Of a DNA stretch of 64,000 nt, positions 6,813 through 60,392 are shown piece by piece. Each line of letters opens with the position of its first letter. The stretch's first letter is position 1. The notes below the pieces were generated by a model. That model searched no databases and was not told where the DNA came from. It saw only the letters and a program-made list of their open reading frames with translations. The translations under genes and the position numbers were made by a program. Where the stretch lies: positions 32,001 through 96,000 of the IMG/VR virus record IMGVR_UViG_3300033405_000004. One strand, 5' to 3'. Source of the stretch: a virus.

Positions 6813-9164
6813 ATGGACCTCCCGAAGTTCTCGCTCATCTACACCTCGGCCCGCCCGCACCTGATCGCCGACGTCGTGCGGCGGTGGAAGGGCCGCGCCG
6901 CCCGCCCGGCCGACGCCCGCTTCGCCATCGCGGTGGACGACGAGGCCGCCCGCGCGGTCGCCGCCGGGACGGCGGAGGACGTGGTCGTGAACGGGGGGCC
7001 CAAGAACTGCGTGGCCGGCTGGAACGCCGCCGCCAAGCTCGCCGAGCGCCAGGGCCTGGGTGACGTGCTCATCGCCGTGGCCGACGACTTCGACGTGCCG
7101 GAGCGCTGGGACGACCTTCTGGCGGGCGTGGCCGCCCCCGGCTGGTGGCTCCAGGACTTCGCCGTCCGCGTCTACGACGGCTACAACTCCGACCTCTGCA
7201 CGCTCGGCATCGTGACCGCCCGCCGCTACCGCCGCCGCGGCTACCTCTTCTACCCCGACTACGAGTCGATCTATTGCTTTCCGCCCGACACGCCTATCCT
7301 GATGGCCAACCATACTCTTAAACCTATTGGTGACGTTGTCCCCGGCGATGTCGTGGTGGGTTCGGTTCGCAGGATTGGGTCGCGGGGCACTGGCAAGCAA
7401 AGGCGGGAGTTTCTTCAGCCGTCCCGAGTGCTGGAGGTCCATCGTAAGCGCGACAGGCTGGTGAGGCTTACGCTGAAGTCCGGTAAGGTGATCCTGTGCA
7501 CTCCTGACCATGTCTGGGCCTACTATGGGGATACCCGCGTGTATTTGCGAAACCAAGCTGGAACCGTGTTGCGTGGACAGGGGGGCCACCCGCGTCAGAA
7601 GGCCGACGGCCAGCTTTTGTACGGAACTCCGAGGATCGGGCGTCGGTTGGTGAAGGTTCTGGACATGCCCCCTTCGCCGCCAATGGACGATCAATCGGTT
7701 CGGGAACTGGGTTGGCTCGCTGGGATTTATGACGGCGAGGGGTGCTTTCCGACCATAACCCAGTCGTTCGACAAGAATCCTGAGGTGTGCAAGGAGCTGG
7801 AGCGCGTGCTGACTCGGTTGGGTTTCAGTTTCACTGTGAAAGGTTATCGTCGGAAATGGAGGGGCAAGCTGATCGAGCAGCACGGTTACTGCATCACTGG
7901 CGGGAGGCCGGAGTACTTGAAGTTTCTGTCGTGGGTCCGGCCCGTGAGAAGCTTCAAGCGAGCGGTGTCCAAGAGAATGTTCACATCCAGGTTTGGGGCG
8001 CCAGACGAGATCGTCAGCATCGAATCGTATGTCGATGACAAGGAAGTCTACTGCCTCTCCACGGAGACCCAAAACTACGTGGCGGACGGTTATCTGAGCC
8101 ACAACAGCGACACCGAGCTCACCTACTCGGCGGCCTACGAGAAGAGGCTCATCTCGGCCCCCCGGCTCCTCTTCGAGCACAGGCACCCCGACTGCGGCAA
8201 GCGCGCCCGGGACGCCGTCGACGAGGCCCACTCCTCCAAGGGCCGCTGGCAGCGCGGGGAGATGCTGTTCAAGTTCCGCATGAGCCAGAACTTCCCCATC
8301 GACGTGGAGCCGCCCGCTGAGCTGGACCGGTTCGCCCTCTACATGCAGGCCATCCGCGACGACTTCTGCCTCTACGACGTGGCCCGGCGCATCGTCGACG
8401 AGGGGAGGGCCGGCCCCGCGCCGGTCGGGCGCGTCTACCTGATGTGCCCCGACGAGTGGTGGTCGGGGCGGCCCCGCTCCCCCGCCGAGATGGCCGAGGT
8501 TCAGGCGGCCGCCAACCGGCTGTGCGCCGAGGGCGTCGACGCCGTGCTGGTCGACCAGCGCGTCGGGCCCGCCCGCGCCTTCTTCCGCACCCGGATCGAC
8601 GTAGAGACCGCCATGCGCAACGAGGCCCTCGACCGGATCTACGCCGACGGGTTCGCCCACGTCATCATCGCCGACGGCGACGAGTTCTGGCGGCGCGGCT
8701 TCTACGCCCGCCTCGCCGAGTGCGTCCAGACCACCGCCGGCGTCACCGCCGGCCTCTACACGGGCATGACGCCGGTCGTGGGCTACCCGGGCTACCCGGT
8801 GGAGGGCTCCACCGACAAGGCGACCGTCTACATCGCCGCGCCCCACCACCTGGTGGACTGCCGCACCGTGGCGGGCAGCCGGGCCGAGCTGCCGGGCCAC
8901 GACGTGATCCACTTCACCGCCACCCGCCGCACCTACGAGGAGGTCGTCCAGAAGCACCGCGAGAGCGGCCACTACGACGACCCCAATTATGACTTCGAGG
9001 GTTGGATCGCCAACACCCTCCCGAAGATCAAGCCTGGCTTCAGGAACGCCCACATGTACAGGCACTATCAGGTCTGGCCGCTGATCCGGGCCTGGAGGCC
9101 CGAGGAGCTGGCCGACCTGCCCGCCTGCGTGCTGCCGTACCTTGGGAATGGAACGGCCAGTTAA
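6813..9164 (+). CDS. Two-domain GT-A/GT2-like glycosyltransferase with intein
   Basis: SLIYTSARP, CVAGWNAA, IAVADDF (DxD-like), YPDYESIY|SDTELT after intein removal; second domain IIADGDEFW. Confidence 0.75.
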   Translation: MDLPKFSLIYTSARPHLIADVVRRWKGRAARPADARFAIAVDDEAARAVAAGTAEDVVVNGGPKNCVAGWNAAAKLAERQGLGDVLIAVADDFDVPERWDDLLAGVAAPGWWLQDFAVRVYDGYNSDLCTLGIVTARRYRRRGYLFYPDYESIYCFPPDTPILMANHTLKPIGDVVPGDVVVGSVRRIGSRGTGKQRREFLQPSRVLEVHRKRDRLVRLTLKSGKVILCTPDHVWAYYGDTRVYLRNQAGTVLRGQGGHPRQKADGQLLYGTPRIGRRLVKVLDMPPSPPMDDQSVRELGWLAGIYDGEGCFPTITQSFDKNPEVCKELERVLTRLGFSFTVKGYRRKWRGKLIEQHGYCITGGRPEYLKFLSWVRPVRSFKRAVSKRMFTSRFGAPDEIVSIESYVDDKEVYCLSTETQNYVADGYLSHNSDTELTYSAAYEKRLISAPRLLFEHRHPDCGKRARDAVDEAHSSKGRWQRGEMLFKFRMSQNFPIDVEPPAELDRFALYMQAIRDDFCLYDVARRIVDEGRAGPAPVGRVYLMCPDEWWSGRPRSPAEMAEVQAAANRLCAEGVDAVLVDQRVGPARAFFRTRIDVETAMRNEALDRIYADGFAHVIIADGDEFWRRGFYARLAECVQTTAGVTAGLYTGMTPVVGYPGYPVEGSTDKATVYIAAPHHLVDCRTVAGSRAELPGHDVIHFTATRRTYEEVVQKHRESGHYDDPNYDFEGWIANTLPKIKPGFRNAHMYRHYQVWPLIRAWRPEELADLPACVLPYLGNGTAS
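7275..8105 (+). mobile_element. Intein with LAGLIDADG-type endonuclease motif (277 aa)
   Basis: Begins CFPPDTPILMA, block B CTPDH, WLAGIYDGEG, ends NYVADGYLSHN|S; visibly lower GC than flanks. Confidence 0.92.
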
Positions 9165-9179
9165 GTTGTTCTAATAAGC

Positions 9180-9545
9180 ATGCACGATGACTTGATTGCC
9201 CTCGTCCTTTCGGCGACGGCGCTGGCGTTGTCTGCAGGCGCATGGGTCTGGATCATTTCCGCCGAGCGGAGGCTGCGGGCCGCGCTGGGTGGCGCGGCGG
9301 TGCGCCAGGCGATGCACGCGCACGAATACGTGGTCCAGTCGGTGAACTCCTACGAGGGCGGCGAGGTCGTCTTCGAGGTCGCGTGCGAGTGCGGCGCGGT
9401 CGAGACCCGGCTGGTGGACGGCTCGGCGGTCGCGGCCCTGGTGGAGCAGGCCGGGTCGACGTGCACGGCCGAGGAGGCCAGGGGCGCCCTCATGCAGGCC
9501 TGCGGGGACCCGGAGGCGGCCCTCGACCTCCTGCGCGGGGGGTGA
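9180..9545 (+). CDS. Membrane-anchored protein with C-terminal UBA/EF-Ts-N-like helical domain
   Basis: N-terminal TM helix, CxCG, then ..TAEEARGALMQACGDPEAALDLL. Confidence 0.55.
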   Translation: MHDDLIALVLSATALALSAGAWVWIISAERRLRAALGGAAVRQAMHAHEYVVQSVNSYEGGEVVFEVACECGAVETRLVDGSAVAALVEQAGSTCTAEEARGALMQACGDPEAALDLLRGG

Positions 9546-21514: not shown

Positions 21515-23740
21515 ATGAAGGACAAGTTCCTCAACTACATTTTCGGCGAGTCCCAGGAGCAGGACGCCCGCGAGGGCGACATCGAGGCCCTCCTGGAGGA
21601 GCTGAAGGCCATGGGCATCGGCGCGGCCGAGGTCAAGGCGCGCAAGCCGGCCGAGAAGGCCGTCCGGGCGCTCGGCGTCGAGGGCGGCGAGTTCGCAGTC
21701 GGGGAGGGCGACGTGTTCACCCTCACGTTCGAGGACTCCGAGGAGTTCCTCAGGGCCGCCGCCATCCTCGGCGACGTCAACAAGGTCAACGAGCTAGCCG
21801 ACGCCGGCTGGGTAGCCGTCCCCGAGGGCGACGTCGCCGGCATGACCGAGCCGGGTGACTTCCGCATCAATTTCGTGCACGTCGGCGTGGCCCAGCCCGC
21901 CGAGCGGACCCCCAAGACCGGCGAGCGGCCGGAGAAGGCCGCCGACCAGATGAACGAGCCGGGCACCGAGGATCTCACTGGCGCCAAGGGGCGCCGCCGC
22001 GGCCTGCCCAAGGGCGTCGGCAAGGACGCCGCCCAGTTCGAATCGCTGGGCGGCCTGCTGCTCCACGCCCAGGAAGCGGCGAAGGGCCCGGTGAAGATCG
22101 TGCACTGCGGCTCCTGCGAGGGCTACCACAGGATCGATTTCCGCGGCGACTGCCGCGAGGACAGCGAGCGCTTCGCCAGCCCGGAGGAGGCCGAGGAGCG
22201 CCTCGGGTGCGAGGTGGTCGAAGTCGACGAGGAGAGTCCCGAAGCGCAGGCCGGGTTCCCGCCCATCGGCGTGGGATTCTGGAAGGGCGCCGGCATCCCC
22301 AGGCGCGAGGAGGCGCGTGAGCTTTCCGTGGCGGACCAGCACCGGCTGAGGATCGCCCGCCAGACGCTCAAGATGAACGACGCGATGGCCAACGTCATGG
22401 GCGGCATGACCAAGGACGAGGCCCGCAAGGTCGTCAAGGAGCTCGCCGGCCGCGAGGCCTGCGATGACGACTCGAAGTGCGAGGAGCCCGTCGGCGAGGC
22501 CGTCCAGCCCGGCACGCTCACCGTCGAGCGGGCGCTGCAGCTTCTTTCCGCCGGCCAGTCCACCTGCCCGACCTCGGACGGCCACGACCTGGACGTCTGG
22601 GACGAGGCCCTTGAGATCTTCCAGGGCGAGCGGGCGCGCCGCCGCGGCGGCTACCAGGGCATCGCCGGGCGCCGCCAGCACGCGATGGCCTGGCGCGAGT
22701 CCGTCGAGGAGGCCAGGATCGGCAGCGGCCGCGTGGCGGCCGCCTTCGCCGCGGGCCGGCCCGCCAGCGAGGCCAACACCTCCACGGACGGCCAGGCGTT
22801 CTTCCTTCACGGCAACAAGATCGCGGAGATCCGCGACGGGCACCTCTGGGTCAGCATGGCCGGGTGGAACAGCGCCACGACGCGCGAGCGCCTGAACGCG
22901 GTGCTGGACGCCTTCGGGCTCCCGGCGCGCGTCCACTCGCAGGGCGGCGTCCGCGGCCAGCCGTTCTCCGGCAAGTCCTACATCCGCCGCACCGACACCG
23001 AGGAGGAGCCGAAGGAGCTGCCCCTGGGCATGCGGGGTGGCGGGGGCCAGTCGCGCCCGGAGCACTGGTTCGACGTGGGGCACGTGATCCAGCGCGATCC
23101 CGCCGCCCCCAATCCGGGCGCCGCCGAGGAGGCTGACCTCGGCCAGTTCCGGGCCGAGGCGTCCGCCCTCGTGGACGAGCTGCTCGGCGAGGACGAGGCC
23201 GAGCCGCGGGACGTGCAGCCCGCCACCGCCTCCGCGCACCTCTACAAGTTCGACGAGCTTTCCCCCAAGGCCAAGGAACGGGCGAAGCGGAACGCCGAGG
23301 AGGCGTTCGGCTACTCCTGGGCCGACGAGTCCATCGAGAGCCTGAAGGCCCTGGCCAAGGCCTTCGGCGGCGAGCTGAAGGACTACGAGATCGACTGGGG
23401 CGGGGGCACCCGCTCCTCGGCCGAGTTCGACATGCCCGATATGGAGCCGACGCAAATCGAGGCGACTCTCAGGGGCCTCGGCACCTACGATGAGAAGACT
23501 TTGAAGGGCCACGGCGCTTGCAAGCTCACGGGCGTCTTCTGCGACGAGAGCGCCATCGACGGCTTCCGACAGGCGTGGCACGCCGGCGAGCGCGATCTCA
23601 ACGCCCTGATGCAGGCCGCCTTCGAGACGTGGCTCAAGGACGCCCAGTCGGACTACGAGCACGAGTACTCCGACGAGGGCTTCGGCGAGACCGCGGACGC
23701 CAACGACTGGCTGTTCCTGGAAAGCGGGGAGATGCCCTGA
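21515..23740 (+). CDS. Large acidic multidomain protein (putative virion-internal polyprotein)
   Basis: Late motif upstream; mosaic of short domains separated by ..E|S/A linkers. Confidence 0.75.
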   Translation: MKDKFLNYIFGESQEQDAREGDIEALLEELKAMGIGAAEVKARKPAEKAVRALGVEGGEFAVGEGDVFTLTFEDSEEFLRAAAILGDVNKVNELADAGWVAVPEGDVAGMTEPGDFRINFVHVGVAQPAERTPKTGERPEKAADQMNEPGTEDLTGAKGRRRGLPKGVGKDAAQFESLGGLLLHAQEAAKGPVKIVHCGSCEGYHRIDFRGDCREDSERFASPEEAEERLGCEVVEVDEESPEAQAGFPPIGVGFWKGAGIPRREEARELSVADQHRLRIARQTLKMNDAMANVMGGMTKDEARKVVKELAGREACDDDSKCEEPVGEAVQPGTLTVERALQLLSAGQSTCPTSDGHDLDVWDEALEIFQGERARRRGGYQGIAGRRQHAMAWRESVEEARIGSGRVAAAFAAGRPASEANTSTDGQAFFLHGNKIAEIRDGHLWVSMAGWNSATTRERLNAVLDAFGLPARVHSQGGVRGQPFSGKSYIRRTDTEEEPKELPLGMRGGGGQSRPEHWFDVGHVIQRDPAAPNPGAAEEADLGQFRAEASALVDELLGEDEAEPRDVQPATASAHLYKFDELSPKAKERAKRNAEEAFGYSWADESIESLKALAKAFGGELKDYEIDWGGGTRSSAEFDMPDMEPTQIEATLRGLGTYDEKTLKGHGACKLTGVFCDESAIDGFRQAWHAGERDLNALMQAAFETWLKDAQSDYEHEYSDEGFGETADANDWLFLESGEMP

Positions 23741-36036: not shown

Positions 36037-36489
36037 ATGCCCAGCGTGCTCCACGTCGAGGACGACCGCGGATTCAACGCAGCCCTGGCGGCCACGCTCG
36101 GCCCCGGCTTCGACCTGGCCCTGGCGACGACGCTGCAGGAGGCCATCGTGGCCGCGTGCACGCGGCAGTTCGACGGCTGCCTGCTCGACCTCAACCTGCC
36201 CGACTCCGAGGGGTTCGCGACCTTCCAGAAGTTCCGCTGCTGCGCGGACGTGCCCGTCATCGTGGTTACCGCCATCGACGACGACCAGCTGGCCCTCAAG
36301 GTGCTCCGCTCCGGGGCGAAAGACTTCTTCGGCAAGGACAAGATTTTCGACGCCGAGGGCCGCGCCCGGCTGGCCCGGTCCATCCGGTGGCACTTCGGCG
36401 ACGGGGCCAACGTCAAGTGCTCGGACATCCTGGCCCTCAGCCGCCGGATTCACGAGCGCGTGCTGGAGCGCTGTGCGATCAGTATTTAG
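36037..36489 (+). CDS. Response-regulator receiver (REC) protein
   Basis: VLHVEDD, LLDLNLPDSEG (phospho-Asp), VIVVTA, GAKDFFGK. Confidence 0.88.
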   Translation: MPSVLHVEDDRGFNAALAATLGPGFDLALATTLQEAIVAACTRQFDGCLLDLNLPDSEGFATFQKFRCCADVPVIVVTAIDDDQLALKVLRSGAKDFFGKDKIFDAEGRARLARSIRWHFGDGANVKCSDILALSRRIHERVLERCAISI

Positions 36490-36492
36490 ACC

Positions 36493-36771
36493 ATGAGCCT
36501 CATCGACGAAAAGAAGCTTACCTACAAAGCCAAGAAGAAGCTGCCGCGGGCGAGCTTCGCCATCCCCGGCAAACAGGACGGGGTCAAGGGCAAGTACCCG
36601 ATCCACGACGCGCCCCACGCCCGCAACGCCCTGGCGCGGGTGTCCGCCCACGGCTCCCCCGAGGAGAAGAAGAAGGTGCGCGCTGCCGTGCACCGCCGGT
36701 TCCCGGGCATCGGCAAGGACAGGAAGACCGAGTCGCTCGCGTGCACCCTGGTGGACCGCCTCCTGGAGTGA
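36493..36771 (+). CDS. Small basic phage protein (FAIP..YPIHD..HARNALARV family)
   Basis: Recognisable motif; ends TESLACTLVDRLLE. Confidence 0.7.
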   Translation: MSLIDEKKLTYKAKKKLPRASFAIPGKQDGVKGKYPIHDAPHARNALARVSAHGSPEEKKKVRAAVHRRFPGIGKDRKTESLACTLVDRLLE

Positions 36772-36774
36772 GCC

Positions 36775-37083
36775 ATGCGCGCCCGCCAGATACTTGAGTC
36801 GCTCCTCTTCCTGGAGGCGGGCGAGGGCCTCCGGCTCAGGCGCCACGGCTTCCGGCCGCTGACCGACGCCGACCGCCGCTACCTGCCCGCCGGTGTCGCC
36901 GCCGGCGACGTCGTGATCAAGGTCACGGACGATGGGGCGATTGTTTACGATTTCACAAGGCGGTACGTCGTCGAGTACGACAGGAATGGCAGGTCGCTTG
37001 ACGCGAGGCACATCTCCATCGACGACTTCGTCAACGAACTCGACCGCGAGGCCCGCCAGGCTAGGGTGGGCGCGGTCCGCTGA
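36775..37083 (+). CDS. Putative capsid-internal protein (leader MRARQILE)
   Basis: Shared leader. Confidence 0.65.
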   Translation: MRARQILESLLFLEAGEGLRLRRHGFRPLTDADRRYLPAGVAAGDVVIKVTDDGAIVYDFTRRYVVEYDRNGRSLDARHISIDDFVNELDREARQARVGAVR

Positions 37084-37093
37084 GTCCCCGCCC

Positions 37094-39115
37094 ATGCCGT
37101 CCAGAATCGTCCAGAGGCTCATGGAAGGCTCGTGCGGCTGCCTGCTGTGCAGGCTCCCCGCCGTGGCCGACTGCGCCAGGATCACCGCTTGGGCGCATGA
37201 GAACGTCGGCGAGCTGGACCTCGCCGGGGACGGCTATGAGAACGACGCCCACGTGACCGTGCTCTACGGCTTCACGCCCGACGTCCGGCCCGAGGAGGTC
37301 AACGAGGTCGTCCTGCGCCACGCCCCGGAGGGCGTCGACTTGCGCCTGGGCGCCGTGGGCTTCTTCACGAACGACCCGGACTACGATGTGCTCAAGGTTT
37401 CCGTGGAGAGCGGCGGGCTCCAGGCCCTCCACTATTCGCTTTGCGCCGCCTTCAGCGGGCGCGTCCAGAGCGACTACCCCGATTACCACCCCCATCTGAC
37501 CCTTGCCTACGTGAAAAAGGGCTGCTGCAGGCATCTGGAGGGCAATGCGAGCCTGTCTGGCTGGGCGTTCAGGTGCTCCGAGTTCACTTTTTCGACCCCC
37601 GGCATGGCCCTGAACTACAAGCTGCCCATGGCCCCCGCCGAGCCGCCTCCCGTTTCGGTTCCGTCGGCCGCCCCGGAGCAGCCGCCTCCCCCGCCGGTGC
37701 CCCCGCCCGCGCAGCCCGCAGTGTCCGCCGAGCCGGCGGCCGCCCCCGTCGCGCCCGTGGTGGCCGCGATGGCCGAGTCGCGCGACGACGACCCGGCGGC
37801 CTGGCGCCTGTCCGAGTTCGACTACAACGTCGATCTGGCGCGCTATCGGGACAAGCCCGCCCCGGCCAAGGGGAGCAGGGGCGAGCCGAGCAAGGAGGGG
37901 CTGGCGTGGCTGCGCGCGGAGCAGGAGAAGGCATCCGCCGCGCAGGAGAAGGCCAGGAAGGAGAGGGAGGAGAGGGAAAAGAGGGAGAAGGAGGCCGCCG
38001 TGGCCGAGGGCATGCGCCCGCTCTACTCCATTAACCGGGCGGTCATCGCAGTCGTCCGGGCGCTGGCCGGCAAGGGGGACTACTCCCCGACCACGATCCG
38101 GTGCTACATTAACGATTTGCTGGACGCCAAGGAGAGGGAGGGCTTCAACGTCGACTTCGGCTACGACCAGCGCAAGGCCGTCGCCCGGGCCCGCCTGCTC
38201 CTGCAGGCGCACCGGATCGCCTCCGGCCCGGCGAACGAGAGCCGCCGGGTCATCGACGAGATTATGGAGCAGCCGGAGGCCCCCGGCCAGGCTGGCAAGC
38301 TGAAGGTCTTCGTGGCCACCAAGCGCGGCCAGGGCCAGCGCAAGTCCGACTTCTTCTGGTGCAAGGAGGGCGAGCTGCTCATCTTCGGCACCGAGTGTGA
38401 CACCGACGCCAACGACCCCAACCCCGACGGCGGCTGCGGCTGCGGGCGGTCGCTGGTCGGGATCGAGACCCTCAAGGGCACCACCACCTTCACCGTCGAG
38501 GAGCGCGACATGACCCCCGAGCAGTTCGAGGAGGCCTACGTCGAGGGCCAGAGGGCCGGCGGTTGGCCGGTCCACGACAAGCAGTACGCCGCGGCGGTTC
38601 GCTCCGACGCGAAGGAGGTCCTGCGCGTGGCCAAGACGTTCCCCGTCGGCGTCGTCCTGGAGAAGCGCAAGGACGTCATCCAGGTTCGCCGCGAACCGGC
38701 CCGGAAGGCCCGCGGGGCCGTCGAGGGGCTGCTCGGAGAGACCTGGGGCGTCCCGGACGAGGCCGAGGTTGAACCCGACGCGGACCCGGCGCAGGAGCAG
38801 CAGGTCGAGGACTACGAGGAGATGCGGCGCGACTTGGAGAGCGGCGACTGCTACGCCATCACCGACAGGGTGCGCGGGGGATACGACTTGGCGGGCCCAA
38901 CGCACCGGAGCGCCGAGTGGGGCCGGTACGCGGCCCCGGGCCGGCGCGTCGCCCACTTCGACGACTTCGACGATGCGGTGCGCGCGATGGTGCACCTGGC
39001 CAACACCAGCCAGTATTGGCCGAACGCCTACAGCATCAACGACCACGGCAACGTCACCCAGCTCGTCGTGAACTGGGACGAGGGCACCTACGAGTTCGGC
39101 CACGCCTGGGTCTGA
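37094..39115 (+). CDS. Polyprotein with N-terminal 2H phosphoesterase (Acb1/T4 gp57B-like)
   Basis: Two HxT motifs, AHVTVLYG and YHPHLTLAY, then Pro linker and several unrelated domains. Confidence 0.8.
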   Translation: MPSRIVQRLMEGSCGCLLCRLPAVADCARITAWAHENVGELDLAGDGYENDAHVTVLYGFTPDVRPEEVNEVVLRHAPEGVDLRLGAVGFFTNDPDYDVLKVSVESGGLQALHYSLCAAFSGRVQSDYPDYHPHLTLAYVKKGCCRHLEGNASLSGWAFRCSEFTFSTPGMALNYKLPMAPAEPPPVSVPSAAPEQPPPPPVPPPAQPAVSAEPAAAPVAPVVAAMAESRDDDPAAWRLSEFDYNVDLARYRDKPAPAKGSRGEPSKEGLAWLRAEQEKASAAQEKARKEREEREKREKEAAVAEGMRPLYSINRAVIAVVRALAGKGDYSPTTIRCYINDLLDAKEREGFNVDFGYDQRKAVARARLLLQAHRIASGPANESRRVIDEIMEQPEAPGQAGKLKVFVATKRGQGQRKSDFFWCKEGELLIFGTECDTDANDPNPDGGCGCGRSLVGIETLKGTTTFTVEERDMTPEQFEEAYVEGQRAGGWPVHDKQYAAAVRSDAKEVLRVAKTFPVGVVLEKRKDVIQVRREPARKARGAVEGLLGETWGVPDEAEVEPDADPAQEQQVEDYEEMRRDLESGDCYAITDRVRGGYDLAGPTHRSAEWGRYAAPGRRVAHFDDFDDAVRAMVHLANTSQYWPNAYSINDHGNVTQLVVNWDEGTYEFGHAWV

Positions 39116-45730: not shown

Positions 45731-46153
45731 GTGAAAGCCGCGCAGATCTTAGAGGCGCTCGTCGAGGACGCCCCCGCCCTCGACGAGTTCACCCGCGCCT
45801 ACATCGAGTGCGCCCTGTGGTCGTCGAACGACGAGTCCACGCCCCAGGGCGGCGAGCCGATGGACGCGAACTACTCCATCGACGACATCGCCCCGGAGGC
45901 GCTCGCGGGGATGGCCGAGGACTGCCGCAAGTTCCAGGAGCAGTTCGGCGTCCCGGCCTACAACCGCGGGGACTACACCGACGAGGAGATGGCGGGCCAC
46001 GACTTCTGGCTCACCAGGAACGGCCACGGCGCCGGCTTCTGGGACCGCAGCGAGCTGGACGAGGCGACGCGGAAGAAGTACACGGACGCCGCCCACGGCT
46101 TCGGCGAGTGCAACCTCTACGTCGGCGACGACGGCAAGATCTACTGCTCCTGA
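45731..46153 (+). CDS. Putative capsid-internal protein (leader MKAAQILE)
   Basis: TACTTAGG upstream; GHDFWLTRNGHGAGFWDR motif. Confidence 0.75.
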   Translation: MKAAQILEALVEDAPALDEFTRAYIECALWSSNDESTPQGGEPMDANYSIDDIAPEALAGMAEDCRKFQEQFGVPAYNRGDYTDEEMAGHDFWLTRNGHGAGFWDRSELDEATRKKYTDAAHGFGECNLYVGDDGKIYCS

Positions 46154-56500: not shown

Positions 56501-57202
56501 CTAACCCGGAGGCCCCGAGGCCACCGGCACCAACGTGTAGCCCTGCATGTCCGGGTCGATGTAGTCCTGGAGGTCCCTCAGGAGCGGGTCCATCTCATCC
56601 CAGTCTTTTGACCAGCCTTCAGGGTCTAGCTCGTCTTCGCCCAAGTCGAAGTGGACCAGCGTTTCCATCGTGGCGTCGAACAGCGTTATCCGGTAGGGCT
56701 TCTGGCCGGGCTTCGTGTTGCGCGAGACTAGCATCCATCCGTGCCCCGTGTACTCCTTTTCCTCCTCGTCCAGGGCGTCGTAGTCGATCCGATACCGTCC
56801 GAGGCCTAGTTTCGCCTCGCCGATCCGGGCCCGCAGCCGCGCCTGGTAGTGGGCCGGGCAGGGGGCCTCCTGGCAGTCCATGCCCTTGGCCTTGGCCCAG
56901 TCCCGCACCTCCTGCGCGTCGGGGCACTCTGGGCAGACCTTCGCCATGAAGCCGCCCCGCGGGTTGGGCTTGTAGCCTTGGAAGGCTTTCCAGTCGCGGG
57001 AGTCGTCCTCCAGCAGCGCGTCCGCCAGCCGGCGGCCAAGAGCCTCGGCCTGCTGGCGCCAGTGTGGCGCCCCGTAAAACATCCGGGCGCGGCACCGCTT
57101 GCAGTCAGCCACCAGCCACCCGCCGACCACGTGGTGCACGAGGTCGTTGCTGCCGCACTCCACGCACTCGGTGGGCACGGCCTGGTCGATGGCGGCGGGC
57201 AT
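56501..57202 (-). CDS. Zn-ribbon multidomain late protein
   Basis: CxxC pairs; internal LADALLE linker. Confidence 0.65.
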   Translation of the reverse strand: MPAAIDQAVPTECVECGSNDLVHHVVGGWLVADCKRCRARMFYGAPHWRQQAEALGRRLADALLEDDSRDWKAFQGYKPNPRGGFMAKVCPECPDAQEVRDWAKAKGMDCQEAPCPAHYQARLRARIGEAKLGLGRYRIDYDALDEEEKEYTGHGWMLVSRNTKPGQKPYRITLFDATMETLVHFDLGEDELDPEGWSKDWDEMDPLLRDLQDYIDPDMQGYTLVPVASGPPG

Positions 57203-57309: not shown

Positions 57310-58764
57310 TCAGCCGATGATCGGGCCGAAGCTGACCGGGCTGTTGAGCACCAGGCCGCGGGCGTAGAACTTGTCGTTCACCATCTTCTTGGCGAAGCTG
57401 GTGGCGAAGCCCCGACGGTGCAGGAAGTCCGTCAGCATGATGTCGGGCGTGGTGTAGAGCTTCTGGTACTCCGCCAGCACGTAGCCCGTCGTGAGGAACT
57501 GGTCGCCCTTGTAGCCGATCAGGAACTCGTTGATGGGATAGTGCGGGTCGGCGAAGACCTTAAATTGGCCTAAATCGCCAATGTAAGTGATGCCCTGCAT
57601 CTTCACCCGGCTGCCCTTTGCGTTGAACTGGGGCAGCGTCTCTACCACCGTGGCGGCCTGCAGGCCCAGGAGCAGCCAGTTGCCGGACGCCATGTTGCTG
57701 GCGCTGAAGATGAAGTTGGATGCGGTCGTGAACGCGTCGATGATCGAGAACTTGTGCGTCTGGTAGTTCACGCCCGAGGGGGCGGTCGCGTCCCACTGCA
57801 CGAAGCCGGCGTCCGCGCGAGCGCGGAGGTCGTAGATCACCTGGCGGTGCTTCTGGTACTGGAGCGCGTTGACCAGCGCGTTGAGGAGGGTGCTCTCCAT
57901 CTTCACGTTGTACATCGCGGCCAGGTTCTGGTCGGCCTCTTCCGACCAGAGGGCGCGCAGCTTGAGGACCTTCGCGGTCACCGGGGTCTGGGTGAGCTTG
58001 AGCTCGTACCCCTGGATGTTCGCGTTGCCCTCGGAGTTGTACGCGTAGGTCACCGTGCAGGCGGTGGTCGTCGGGCCGACGAGGACGATGGTGCCCAGGG
58101 CGTAGTTGATGGTGCCGGTGATGCCGGTGCCGACCACGTTCCCGTTGCCGTCGTCCGTCGCGTAGTCAGCGCCCATCGTGACCTGGAGGGTGCCGGAGCG
58201 GACCGGCGTCCAGGACAGGGTGGTGCTGACGTTGCCGGCGCCGTCGGAGGTGCCGAGCGACTCGTTCGTCACGAGCTCGTCCGAGTCGTCGAAGCGGTCG
58301 ACTGCGCCCTGCAGCGCGCGCCACATGGGCGTGCCCGCCGGGGTCTGGCCCTTCGCGCGCTCAGTCACGATGTCGAGGTAGACGATCTGGCTGACCGGGC
58401 CGGCCATGGGCTGGAGCGCCACGAGCTGGTCGATCACGTCGTTCTCCGACATGTTCGCGATGACGGGGAAGATCCACTTGTCGAAGGTGCCGAGGCTCTG
58501 CGTGCGGGTCACCTCGTCGAGGCGCCCGAACCGGCGGCGGCAGTTTTCGAGCATGATGGCCGTTGTGGCCTGTTTGTGCTCAGGCATGTGCGAGACGTAC
58601 TGCTTCCAGCCGCGCGCCTCCCACAGGTTCTTGTACGAGCCCTCCGGGACGCCGATGTCGGTGGTGGCGAGCCGCGCACCCCATTCGAGAATCTGGGGGA
58701 ATGTCGCTGCCCCGCCTCCATCCGTCACCAGGGTGGGCCTGTTAACGCTGTCCATGAGAATCAT
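57310..58764 (-). CDS. Major capsid protein (T4 gp23-like)
   Basis: TAIMLEN, LVALQPMAGPVSQIVYLD, VTAKVLKLRALWSEEA.QNL.A, LIGYKG, G.VLAEY. Confidence 0.9.
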   Translation of the reverse strand: MILMDSVNRPTLVTDGGGAATFPQILEWGARLATTDIGVPEGSYKNLWEARGWKQYVSHMPEHKQATTAIMLENCRRRFGRLDEVTRTQSLGTFDKWIFPVIANMSENDVIDQLVALQPMAGPVSQIVYLDIVTERAKGQTPAGTPMWRALQGAVDRFDDSDELVTNESLGTSDGAGNVSTTLSWTPVRSGTLQVTMGADYATDDGNGNVVGTGITGTINYALGTIVLVGPTTTACTVTYAYNSEGNANIQGYELKLTQTPVTAKVLKLRALWSEEADQNLAAMYNVKMESTLLNALVNALQYQKHRQVIYDLRARADAGFVQWDATAPSGVNYQTHKFSIIDAFTTASNFIFSASNMASGNWLLLGLQAATVVETLPQFNAKGSRVKMQGITYIGDLGQFKVFADPHYPINEFLIGYKGDQFLTTGYVLAEYQKLYTTPDIMLTDFLHRRGFATSFAKKMVNDKFYARGLVLNSPVSFGPIIG

Positions 58765-58829: not shown

Positions 58830-60392
58830 TTAGCCGTTCAAAACTGCTTTGGAGAGGCGGGCCGTGAGCTCGGTGCTCTCGGCGACCGTGAAGGGCCGGT
58901 CGACGGGGTACTCGGGCGCCTTCGGCGCGTCCTTCGGGGCGTCCTTGGGGGTGTCCTTCGGGGCGTCCTTGGGGGCGTCCTTCGACTCCATCGCGGGCTG
59001 CGGGGCGACGACCTTGCCCAGGCCGGCCTTCTCGTCCTTGATGTCGGACGGGACCTTGCCGGCGGCGTCCTTGCTGCCGCCCTTCTCGCCGTCCTTCTTC
59101 GCCTTCTTCAGCTCCTCCTTGATGGGGAGCAGGTGGGCGGGCTTGGTGGCCTCGTTGAGCCTCTTCTTGATGGCCTCGTCCGTCGGGTTGAACTCCAGGA
59201 TGATGAGCCTGCGGCCGAGCGAGGTGGTGTCCTCGTTGTAGCGGCGGGTCATCTCGTCGAGGGCGGCGCAGGTGATGTCCACCTTGCGCTCCAGGAGCGC
59301 GCACTTGCGGGCCTTCGCCTGGAGGCTGTCCCGGAGCGCGGCGATGCGCTTCAGGGTCTCGGCCATCTTCCCCTTGTAGGAAAGAGCCGTTTCGGCGACG
59401 CCCTTCAAGACCTTGAGGGTCTTGGTCTGCTGCTCCTTGAGCGTGGCCGCCTCCCTGCCGGGCGCGGTCGCGGCCTCCGAGAAGCTCTTCTCGATGGCGT
59501 TCAGCTCGTCGTCGATGCGGCGCCCGTCGTAGGACAGCTTCGGGTCCTCTGCGACAAGGGCGGCCACTTCGCGGTGGAGCTGCTGCGCCTGGGTGAGGCT
59601 CTCAGCGAACCGCTGCGGGTCCAGCTTGGTGGGGTCCACGGACCGGAGCCGGCTGACCGATTCATTGATGGATTTGATGTCCGGCATGGGTGTGGTTTTG
59701 GTTGGAGATTTGCCGGCGTCGCCGGCGGGTTGGGAAGGTTTGGCGTCCGCCGCGGGCGCGGGCGGTGCTGCCTCCGAAAGGGGTTGGGCCTTGGCGGCCG
59801 GGGCGGACTCCTTGACCGGCCCCTCCGCGGCGGCCGCCTTGGGCGGCTCGCGGTTGGGGTGGAGCTCGGCCTCGGTGAAGCTCGGCGTGAACACGCAGTC
59901 CCAGGTCTCGCAGACGTAGTCCTCCTGGACGACGTCGACGCCCCTGTCGTTGGCCACGACCGTGCCGTAGCCGCGCGAGGAGACCAGCGGGTTGTAGCCG
60001 ACCTCGATCAGGGCCGACAGCTTGTGACCCTCGGCGGTGTTCACCAGGGTGATCTCGCCGTTGACTTCGTTGCCCTCCATCCAGACCTTGGTCAGGACGT
60101 GGGAGATGGGGCTGTTCAGGTCGACCTTGCCGTCCTTCGGGTGCTCAAGCAGGCCGAAAGCCGAGCGGGCCGCGATCGACTTCTGGAGCTGGGAGCCCTC
60201 GGCGAGGTTCTTCTCCCAGACGGCCTTCGGGTAGATGCGGTTGTTGCCGTTGACCAGGTCGCAGATGGAGAGCCGGCCAGGGATGGTCAGGGGGAAGACG
60301 CTCTTGCCCGCGCTCCTGTCCTCGTGCAAGCGGGTGATGGCCTCGGGCTTGGGGACGAAGGCGTAAGTCTCGTACAGCAGTTGCTTTGCCAC
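58830..60392 (-). CDS. Prohead protease (T4 gp21-like) fused to coiled-coil scaffold
   Basis: NGNNRIYP, GLLEHP, VSSRGYG, WDCVFTPSF (His/Ser/Asp); long helical C-terminal region. Confidence 0.88.
   Translation of the reverse strand: MAKQLLYETYAFVPKPEAITRLHEDRSAGKSVFPLTIPGRLSICDLVNGNNRIYPKAVWEKNLAEGSQLQKSIAARSAFGLLEHPKDGKVDLNSPISHVLTKVWMEGNEVNGEITLVNTAEGHKLSALIEVGYNPLVSSRGYGTVVANDRGVDVVQEDYVCETWDCVFTPSFTEAELHPNREPPKAAAAEGPVKESAPAAKAQPLSEAAPPAPAADAKPSQPAGDAGKSPTKTTPMPDIKSINESVSRLRSVDPTKLDPQRFAESLTQAQQLHREVAALVAEDPKLSYDGRRIDDELNAIEKSFSEAATAPGREAATLKEQQTKTLKVLKGVAETALSYKGKMAETLKRIAALRDSLQAKARKCALLERKVDITCAALDEMTRRYNEDTTSLGRRLIILEFNPTDEAIKKRLNEATKPAHLLPIKEELKKAKKDGEKGGSKDAAGKVPSDIKDEKAGLGKVVAPQPAMESKDAPKDAPKDTPKDAPKDAPKAPEYPVDRPFTVAESTELTARLSKAVLNG
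58919..58982 (-). repeat. 12-bp tandem repeat x5 encoding KD[AT]P
   Basis: KDAPKDAPKDTPKDAPKDAP in the scaffold tail. Confidence 0.8.

Follow-up and report, generated by a model that had tools for sequence, protein, structure and literature searches.

A 2H phosphoesterase fusion carrying a repeated leader-like peptide in a large T4-like phage: a candidate capsid-targeted internal polyprotein

Why would a phage join a 2H phosphoesterase domain to three further modules and place copies of one short peptide, hereafter the tag, ahead of three of the four? The gene that raises this question lies at 37094-39115 (+) of the window analyzed here, a 64,000-nucleotide stretch (~68% G+C) comprising bases 32001-96000 of the 157,322-bp IMG/VR record IMGVR_UViG_3300033405_000004, which is estimated to be 69% complete. 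The source is an uncultured, large, high-GC T4-like phage, a T4-like jumbo phage in our best explanation of the data. The answer we favor, at a probability of roughly 55%, is that the 673-aa product, P0001, is a capsid-targeted, protease-processed internal polyprotein, in effect a T4-style internal protein expanded into a polyprotein whose parts are delimited by tags. Loading into the head, cutting, and injection with the DNA appear likely for P0001 because the tag that three of its modules follow is reused on many unrelated proteins.

According to this model, the tag would act like the capsid-targeting sequence (CTS) of T4 and dock P0001 onto the scaffolding core during prohead assembly, and a gp21-type protease would then cut after the Glu that ends each tag (E11, E392, and E549). 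Three products would result, the first consisting of the 2H enzyme with its linker and a helical region, the second of the DUF7715 module, and the third of the C-terminal domain, all three remaining in the head until they pass into the next host along with the phage DNA. The 2H module would be an active, metal-independent phosphodiesterase, most likely one that degrades cyclic-oligonucleotide immune signals as Acb1 does, and the signal would be destroyed before any phage gene is expressed. The initial annotation of this gene had proposed a cleavable polyprotein delivered by the virion as an anti-defense payload. Delivery and processing of this kind are favored by the reused tag, a matching head protease, the portable modules, and a 2H family that is linked to putative delivery devices in other phages, but two of the cleavage sites that had been proposed found no support.

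The open reading frame (ORF) is genuine, with frame +2 open over 36932-39115 and a third-position G+C content (GC3) of 0.91, and each feature that had previously been listed was found in its place. Two AlphaFold2 runs, together with Pfam, define the layout. The chain, encoded throughout on the plus strand, opens with an N-terminal leader that constitutes tag copy 1 (37094..37126; aa 1-11), ends L-M-E, and contains a low-confidence short helix at aa 6-11. The 2H domain follows (37127..37633; aa 12-180), with its HxT motifs at H53/T55 and H134/T136 and a predicted local distance difference test score (pLDDT) above 90, and leads into a Pro/Ala-rich linker (37634..37843; aa 181-250) that is 27% Pro and 23% Ala, is predicted to be disordered (pLDDT <50 over aa 207-248), and corresponds to the Pro linker already recognized. 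The orphan helical region (37844..38236; aa 251-381) is predicted to consist of a long charged helix at aa 267-324, with moderate to high confidence, and a small helical bundle at aa 332-377, with moderate confidence. Tag copy 2 (38237..38269; aa 382-392), which ends I-M-E, coincides with a short helix at aa 380-391 of moderate confidence and is separated by a low-confidence, 10-residue linker (aa 393-402) from the DUF7715 module (38300..38695; aa 403-534; PF24831, 1.4e-33 over aa 403-533), which is modeled with a pLDDT of 94-98. Tag copy 3 (38705..38740; aa 538-549), which ends L-G-E, likewise contains a short helix of moderate confidence at aa 540-546, and it is followed by an acidic linker of low pLDDT (38741..38785; aa 550-564; 40% Asp+Glu) and by a C-terminal alpha/beta domain (38786..39115, including the stop codon; aa 565-673; pLDDT 76-92). 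Both internal tags are predicted to be short helices that come after a folded region, with a low-confidence linker between each tag and the next module.

This layout bears out the earlier view that further domains lie beyond the 2H domain, and the structure prediction that had been suggested for each domain recovered the 2H fold and gave folded models of DUF7715 and the C-terminal domain at high and moderate pLDDT, respectively. The Cys cluster that had been pointed out is also real, consisting of ECDTD (aa 434-438) and GGCGCGR (aa 446-452) inside DUF7715, and its three Cys residues (Cys435, Cys448, and Cys450) are conserved in that family. The four proposed junctions fared unequally. Two of them are tag copies 2 and 3, whereas AMAE/S (aa 225-229) lies inside the disordered linker and is at most a non-canonical site, and AVAE/G (aa 302-306) falls within the predicted long helix. 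Only four Pfam families match P0001 at E<=1, none of them of the MuF, portal, or MPTase type.

The tag follows an amphipathic pattern, roughly small-basic-x-h-h-acidic-x-h-h-Glu (h, hydrophobic), that is shared by many unrelated proteins of the genome. For cross-validation, a position matrix was built from genes in one half of the genome and then applied to the remaining half. With the matrix from genes beyond 100 kb, the other half yielded 13 matches, compared with 2.4 +/- 1.5 (maximum 7) for shuffled sequences; at a more stringent threshold there were 7, compared with 0.7. When the halves were exchanged, the counts were 13 compared with 1.9 and, at the more stringent threshold, 8 compared with 0.7. 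The three copies in P0001 (aa 1-12, 382-393, and 538-549) scored 19.2, 13.0, and 12.4 with the independent model, all among the best matches, and all three end in h-x-Glu (LME, IME, and LGE). Judged by these sequence comparisons, the tag is a genuine recurring element of the genome. It opens the genes at 36775, 45731, and 23740, and further copies sit inside larger proteins. The first of these genes is the 102-aa upstream neighbor of P0001 (36775..37083, +), which starts with the same kind of tag, and the second encodes a 140-aa protein (45731..46153, +; phrog_1915) whose tag scored 12.3 in cross-validation.

The window also encodes the machinery that such a tag would require in the T4 scheme. 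A T4 gp21-type head maturation protease (Peptidase_S77) with a coiled-coil, scaffold-like tail is encoded at 58830..60392 (-; PF03420, 76.3 bits; phrog_207, 9e-37), and a T4 gp23-type major capsid protein at 57310..58764 (-; PF07068, 108.6 bits; BLASTP match to T4 gp23), although in its alignment to T4 gp23 the position of the L-T-E cut is gapped. In T4, internal head proteins reach the scaffolding core via the CTS (PMC5694885, PMC12991175), and gp21 strips propeptides by cutting after Glu, with Alt being cut at ITE-6 and LTE-619 (PMC5694885) and I/LxE being the preferred motif (PMC12991175). IPII and IPIII both start with MKTYQEFIAE in the T4 record. Three features that mark T4-type internal proteins, namely an h-x-Glu leader, its occurrence on unrelated proteins, and an S77 protease alongside a gp23-type capsid gene, are found in this phage. 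The system of phiKZ-type phages, with its A/S/G-x-E motif, was considered and rejected because the protease is of the S77 type and the capsid protein is gp23-like. The C-terminal tail of the protease, ~340 aa in length, carries a run of DAPK/DTPK repeats and a terminal peptide that is loosely tag-like. In T4 itself, gene 57B (L050:3952-4410, encoding Acb1) starts with MMEFKDF and the adjacent ipI (L050:3591-3878) with MKTFKEF, so that their first seven residues are similar.

The relatives of P0001 carry comparable leaders. Its closest homologues, P0003 (503 aa), P0004 (442 aa), and P0011 (322 aa), have in common with it the 2H domain, tag 3 at the same position with the acidic linker, and the C-terminal domain. 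The N-terminal leader is kept in P0003 and P0004, and P0011 as deposited starts inside the 2H domain. The middles of these proteins differ, with P0003 containing DUF7417 and P0011 almost nothing. Because relatives at the same locus differ in the middle but keep tag 3 and the C-terminal domain, modules appear to have been gained and lost in place. The order of the locus is also shared with P0004 and P0011, comprising a receiver-domain gene, a ~92-aa gene, the 2H fusion, two unknown genes, and Baseplate_J.

An exhaustive homologue search returned 4,239 proteins at E<=0.001, and the best 150 of these, for which the layout was described, fall into two groups, one of 2H homologues, most of them free-standing proteins of 175-190 aa, and one of DUF7715 homologues. 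A first full-length alignment that mixed the two misaligned the 2H rows, and two separate alignments were used instead. A leader of at least 8 aa precedes strand 1 in every one of the 76 homologues whose 2H domain is N-terminal, and 46 of these have h-x-Glu no more than 10 residues from strand 1, as opposed to 23 in shuffled leaders (maximum 36 of 500). Homologous 2H genes were also located at 42 IMG/VR loci of 25-39% G+C, mostly with T4-like leaders, and such a gene often lies within an array of up to 13 genes that open with the same T4-like leader (e.g., MKHIKLFEEFVTE). At 16 of the 42 loci, a total of 72 neighboring ORFs match at least 7 of the 13 leader residues of the 2H gene, compared with none for control residues 14-26. 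Where the neighbors carry another leader (MNLQENI...), the leader of the 2H gene follows, so the leader varies by phage group. An S77 protease is encoded in 4/5 of those phage records, including all three complete ones. In further members of this 2H clade, the domain forms part of a polyvalent protein together with Phage_Mu_F, NUDIX, ART-PolyVal, InPase, or GNAT domains. This association has been described before, in work that predicted such 2H domains to degrade defense nucleotides or act as RNases and proposed delivery of polyvalent proteins by the virion (Iyer et al. 2017, PMC5512222). The comparison supports the view that this 2H family has repeatedly become attached to putative virion-delivery devices, whether CTS-like leaders or MuF polyvalent proteins.

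The identity of the 2H domain determines what such a payload might do. The domain is intact, as had been proposed, with the HxT motifs HVTVLYG (aa 53-59; 37250-37270) and HLTLAY (aa 134-139; 37493-37510), the two-motif signature of the 2H superfamily, and with both catalytic His residues invariant in 48 aligned homologues. It matches Pfam 2_5_RNA_ligase2 (PF13563) over aa 48-142 (5.8e-12; 46.4 bits against a cut-off of 27), and the predicted model superimposes on many 2H structures with Z scores of 13-15 and a root-mean-square deviation (rmsd) of 2.7-3.6 over 135-165 residues, confirming the 2H fold. Its label as Acb1-like held in part. The Pfam Acb1 model (PF23474) gives P0001 20.5 bits, below the cut-off of 27, and likewise 17.3 for P0003 and 21.7 for P0004, whereas eight low-GC relatives exceed it, with 29-33 bits. 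When PDB sequences were searched with a profile of the family, three Acb1-named entries ranked first (9q2g, 5.8e-8; 9q2y, 8.8e-6; 7t26, 1.2e-4), followed by PH0099 at 4.9e-3, and E. coli LigT gave no match at E<=1. When P0001 alone was compared with all PDB chains by phmmer, Acb1 was the only 2H protein to appear (E 0.58), with a nearly identical second HxT motif, but hhalign to T4 Acb1 alone reached a probability of only 55%. The motif around the second HxT (YPDYxPHxTLxY) is common to P0001 and FBB1 Acb1, invariant F91 aligns with the base-stacking Trp of the T4 and BCSR5 Acb1 enzymes, and Y128 lies within the shared YPDY motif. Of the features that bind the ligand in FBB1 Acb1, which include Y12, W74, F107, W147, a C-terminal lid, and E141 (Hobbs et al. 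2022, PMC9117128), P0001 could be assigned the catalytic tetrad and an aromatic or two, and no counterpart of Y12, the W147 lid, or E141 could be recognized in its 2H domain. Because the family profile and the low-GC relatives favor Acb1 although the fold is tied, we retain the term Acb1-like, by which we mean that the nearest relatives among solved structures point moderately toward Acb1, rather than that P0001 is a demonstrated Acb1.

The tie in fold is also the chief argument for a different substrate. P0001 could be packaged and tagged just as described, and its 2H domain could instead heal or trim the 2',3'-cyclic phosphate RNA ends left by host anticodon nucleases, or act in a Usb1-like manner, a role that is possible but that we consider doubtful. 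Z scores to TT0787 (15.1), Usb1 (14.8), and LigT (14.6), and to PH0099 and CPDase in the same range of 14-15, equal or exceed that to FBB1 Acb1 (13.7; 135/137 residues, rmsd 2.8), and comparison of the modeled fold cannot choose among enzymes that are effectively tied. The domain is also of LigT size, at ~170 aa, rather than compact like Acb1 (137-152 aa), PF13563 outscores the Acb1 model for P0001, and an RNase role is one of the two options proposed for the 2H domains of polyvalent proteins (PMC5512222). However, the ThpR/LigT model of NCBIfam (TIGR02258) gives only 25.9 bits, far below its cut-off of 65.7, and neither an Rnl2-type ligase nor RtcB was found in the 157-kb record, itself 69% complete. 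Grouping of the domain with LigT and RNA-repair enzymes was named beforehand as an outcome that would speak against an Acb1-like activity; the fold ties these enzymes with Acb1, the sequence profile prefers Acb1 chains, and the domain has the YPDYxPHxTLxY motif in common with FBB1 Acb1.

Returning to the internal polyprotein that we favor, we note that, beyond the below-threshold Acb1 score, the modest hhalign probability, and the tied folds, a number of observations weigh against it. The first concerns the start of the protein. We place it at the ATG at 37094 because the upstream gene stops at 37083, but the public gene call, P0002 (664 aa), starts at Met10, just after an AGAGG, and so loses the leader. 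Met1 is favored because, in relatives, the leader is preserved in the protein sequence and no Met stands at the position of Met10. As a separate matter, automated annotation may systematically hide leaders such as that at 37094-37123. The second concerns the tag. A crude regular expression matched 21 times in the phage proteins and 5.1 +/- 2.2 times in shuffles, but it matched 10 times in reversed sequences, and shuffling does not account for amphipathic helices being naturally overrepresented; the sequence of the tag is, moreover, unlike the T4 CTS. The third concerns delivery within the family, as T4 Acb1 has no such leader, a leaderless 161-aa 2H homologue occurs among small unannotated genes in Maribacter phages, and the Acb1 homologue of phage G was not detected in the proteomic data of the study that describes it (PMC12484599). 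Head loading and cutting of P0001 are predictions from sequence, for this phage and its close relatives alike.

Occurrence of the tag at C-termini also suggests that it may be a general docking helix. The 92-aa gene upstream of the 2H fusion (36493..36771, +; phrog_16160) carries it at its C-terminal end, as does its orthologue in the related contig L056 (63% G+C), where the orthologues of two neighboring genes end in a tag. On this account, the repeated peptide would direct proteins to some other partner or compartment, and P0001 would act uncut as a multidomain enzyme in the infected cell. The presence of the tag at N-termini, internally, and at C-termini would fit such a role, and so would the tagged proteins of this phage, which have no proven virion location and, P0001 aside, no known function. 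We nevertheless consider this unlikely. The h-x-Glu at the end of the tag is the cutting site of the type of protease that the phage encodes, T4 Alt is itself cut at both N- and C-terminal propeptides, low-GC relatives have leaders very near the T4 CTS inside their same-leader gene arrays, and the 2H fusion gene adjoins the baseplate module in three related phages. Even less probable is that the internal tags are relics of gene fusion after stop-codon loss, with only the N-terminal leader working and the chain packaged whole, for although each internal tag lies just before a module that is, or could be, free-standing, and neighboring genes end or begin with tags a few bases apart, tag 3 has kept its pattern and position in four diverged relatives whose flanking linkers have changed, which argues for continued selection on it.

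The modules behind the internal tags merit attention in their own right. The invariant positions of DUF7715 (Gln, Arg, Asp, Cys-Gly-Cys-x-Arg, Thr, Glu, and Arg) suggest an enzyme or a ligand binder, and its three Cys and one Asp could conceivably hold a metal. Free-standing homologues are ~130 aa long, and their first residue aligns exactly to aa 403 of P0001, the start of the module. DUF7715 was absent from the 50,697 phage records searched, and peptide-pattern scans of viral and genome contigs did not find it; it does occur on a Euzebya pacifica megaplasmid and on one metagenomic contig, each time in an array of small unknown genes all oriented the same way. On the former (plasmid pEDY32-46I, 572 kb; L054:7001-7405), the free-standing DUF7715 gene is accompanied by genes for a GNAT, a DUF4262 protein, and a cytosine methyltransferase. 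Structures resembling DUF7715 or the C-terminal domain were sought in the PDB with Foldseek, among 48,161 chains with VIA-align, and in BFVD, with no convincing match; the best Z score was 4.6, one 86-aa uncharacterized marine-virus protein appeared at E 6.5e-4, and a search of the ESM Atlas gave no match above 0.76. The C-terminal domain is common only to P0003, P0004, and P0011 among the best 150 of the 4,239 matches, and neither short free-standing homologues, by word-based search, nor IMG/VR relatives were found for it. The helical region matched no Pfam or PHROG family, and the best 150 representatives included no homologue of it outside the database record of the protein itself.

Several neighboring genes deserve brief mention. 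Two genes upstream of the fusion lies a stand-alone response-regulator receiver domain (36037-36489, +; PF00072, 3.7e-15), which occupies the same place in two related contigs. In L056, a 251-aa gene on the opposite strand (8529-9284, -) stands where the 102-aa tagged gene precedes the 2H gene in the phage of P0001, and we take its N-terminus to resemble a GIY-YIG homing endonuclease. A 233-aa uncharacterized protein encoded beside the major capsid gene (56501-57202, -) has an internal tag scoring 16.9, followed by acidic residues, and could belong to the core or scaffold. An internal tag scoring 19.1 also occurs at ~aa 550 of a 741-aa Kyano_Gp96-domain protein (21515-23740, +), where it is followed by an acidic linker, a layout that matches tag 3 of P0001.

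Known Acb1 enzymes are treated as being made after infection. If the internal polyprotein exists as proposed, an Acb1-type enzyme would instead be pre-made, packed in the head, and injected, destroying the alarm nucleotides of the host from the first second of infection, and internal proteins would constitute a general delivery route for enzymatic counter-defense. More tentatively, the tag could be a portable load-and-cut cassette behind copies of which this phage lineage strings its cargo, with the head protease splitting the product of one gene into several effectors that are injected separately, in which case DUF7715 and the C-terminal domain would be new injected counter-defense proteins. 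Having no known function or fold, these two domains are in any event concrete candidates for testing against defense systems, and searching for the tag would be a simple way to list, from sequence, what uncultured T4-like giant phages inject. The T4 protease gp21 itself activates CBASS, the antiphage signaling system that is based on cyclic oligonucleotides, late in infection (2026 preprint). An Acb1-like enzyme produced alongside the head proteins, and itself processed by the very protease that trips CBASS, would be a matched countermeasure in both the producing cell and the next host, but this pairing is speculation. A literature search for a virion-packaged Acb1, or for any capsid-targeted anti-CBASS or Acb1-type enzyme, found no such report.

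How, then, does P0001 compare with the systems already described? It resembles the T4 internal proteins IPI, IPII, IPIII, and Alt in having a short N-terminal h-x-Glu peptide that is found on unrelated proteins, in the accompanying S77 protease and gp23-type capsid, and in a plausible anti-defense cargo, as with IPI*, and the leaders of its low-GC relatives are close to MKTYQEFIAE. It differs from them in its high-GC dialect of the tag, in the presence of three copies in one chain, and in the C-terminal copies on other proteins, and, unlike the small basic internal proteins of T4, it would be packaged as a chain of 673 aa and four modules. With Acb1 (T4 gp57B; FBB1, PDB 7T26; BCSR5, PDB 9Q2G), it shares the 2H fold, the HxT/HxT tetrad, and the motif around the second HxT, and its F91 aligns with the base-stacking Trp, but it scores below the Pfam cut-off and has a larger domain. 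It is also part of a multimodule chain headed by a leader; T4 Acb1, by contrast, stands alone, and no h-x-Glu leader precedes its first strand.

As in polyvalent proteins, which are thought to be delivered by the virion (Iyer, Burroughs, Anand, de Souza, and Aravind 2017), several unrelated effector-like domains are joined in one chain, P0001 having at least the two unrelated effector-type domains that define such proteins. In contrast to them, it lacks a MuF, portal, or metallopeptidase domain, and its proposed loading and cutting would depend on a tag of the T4 type together with the head protease. Giant phages of the phiKZ/SPN3US type also cut head proteins, among them ejection and inner-body proteins, after Glu in a short motif, sometimes at several sites, with a gp21-related protease, but they use an A/S/G-x-E motif and an S80 protease, and no shared, portable inter-domain tag has been described for them. 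Capsid-targeting leaders, 2H domains in virion-delivered polyvalent proteins, and Acb1 are all already known, whereas the high-GC tag dialect, its inter-domain and C-terminal use, and the fusion with DUF7715 and two orphan modules are specific to the P0001 locus. If cleavage were confirmed, the use of the tag between domains would link the T4 capsid-targeting sequence with polyvalent proteins, two systems that have so far been described separately.

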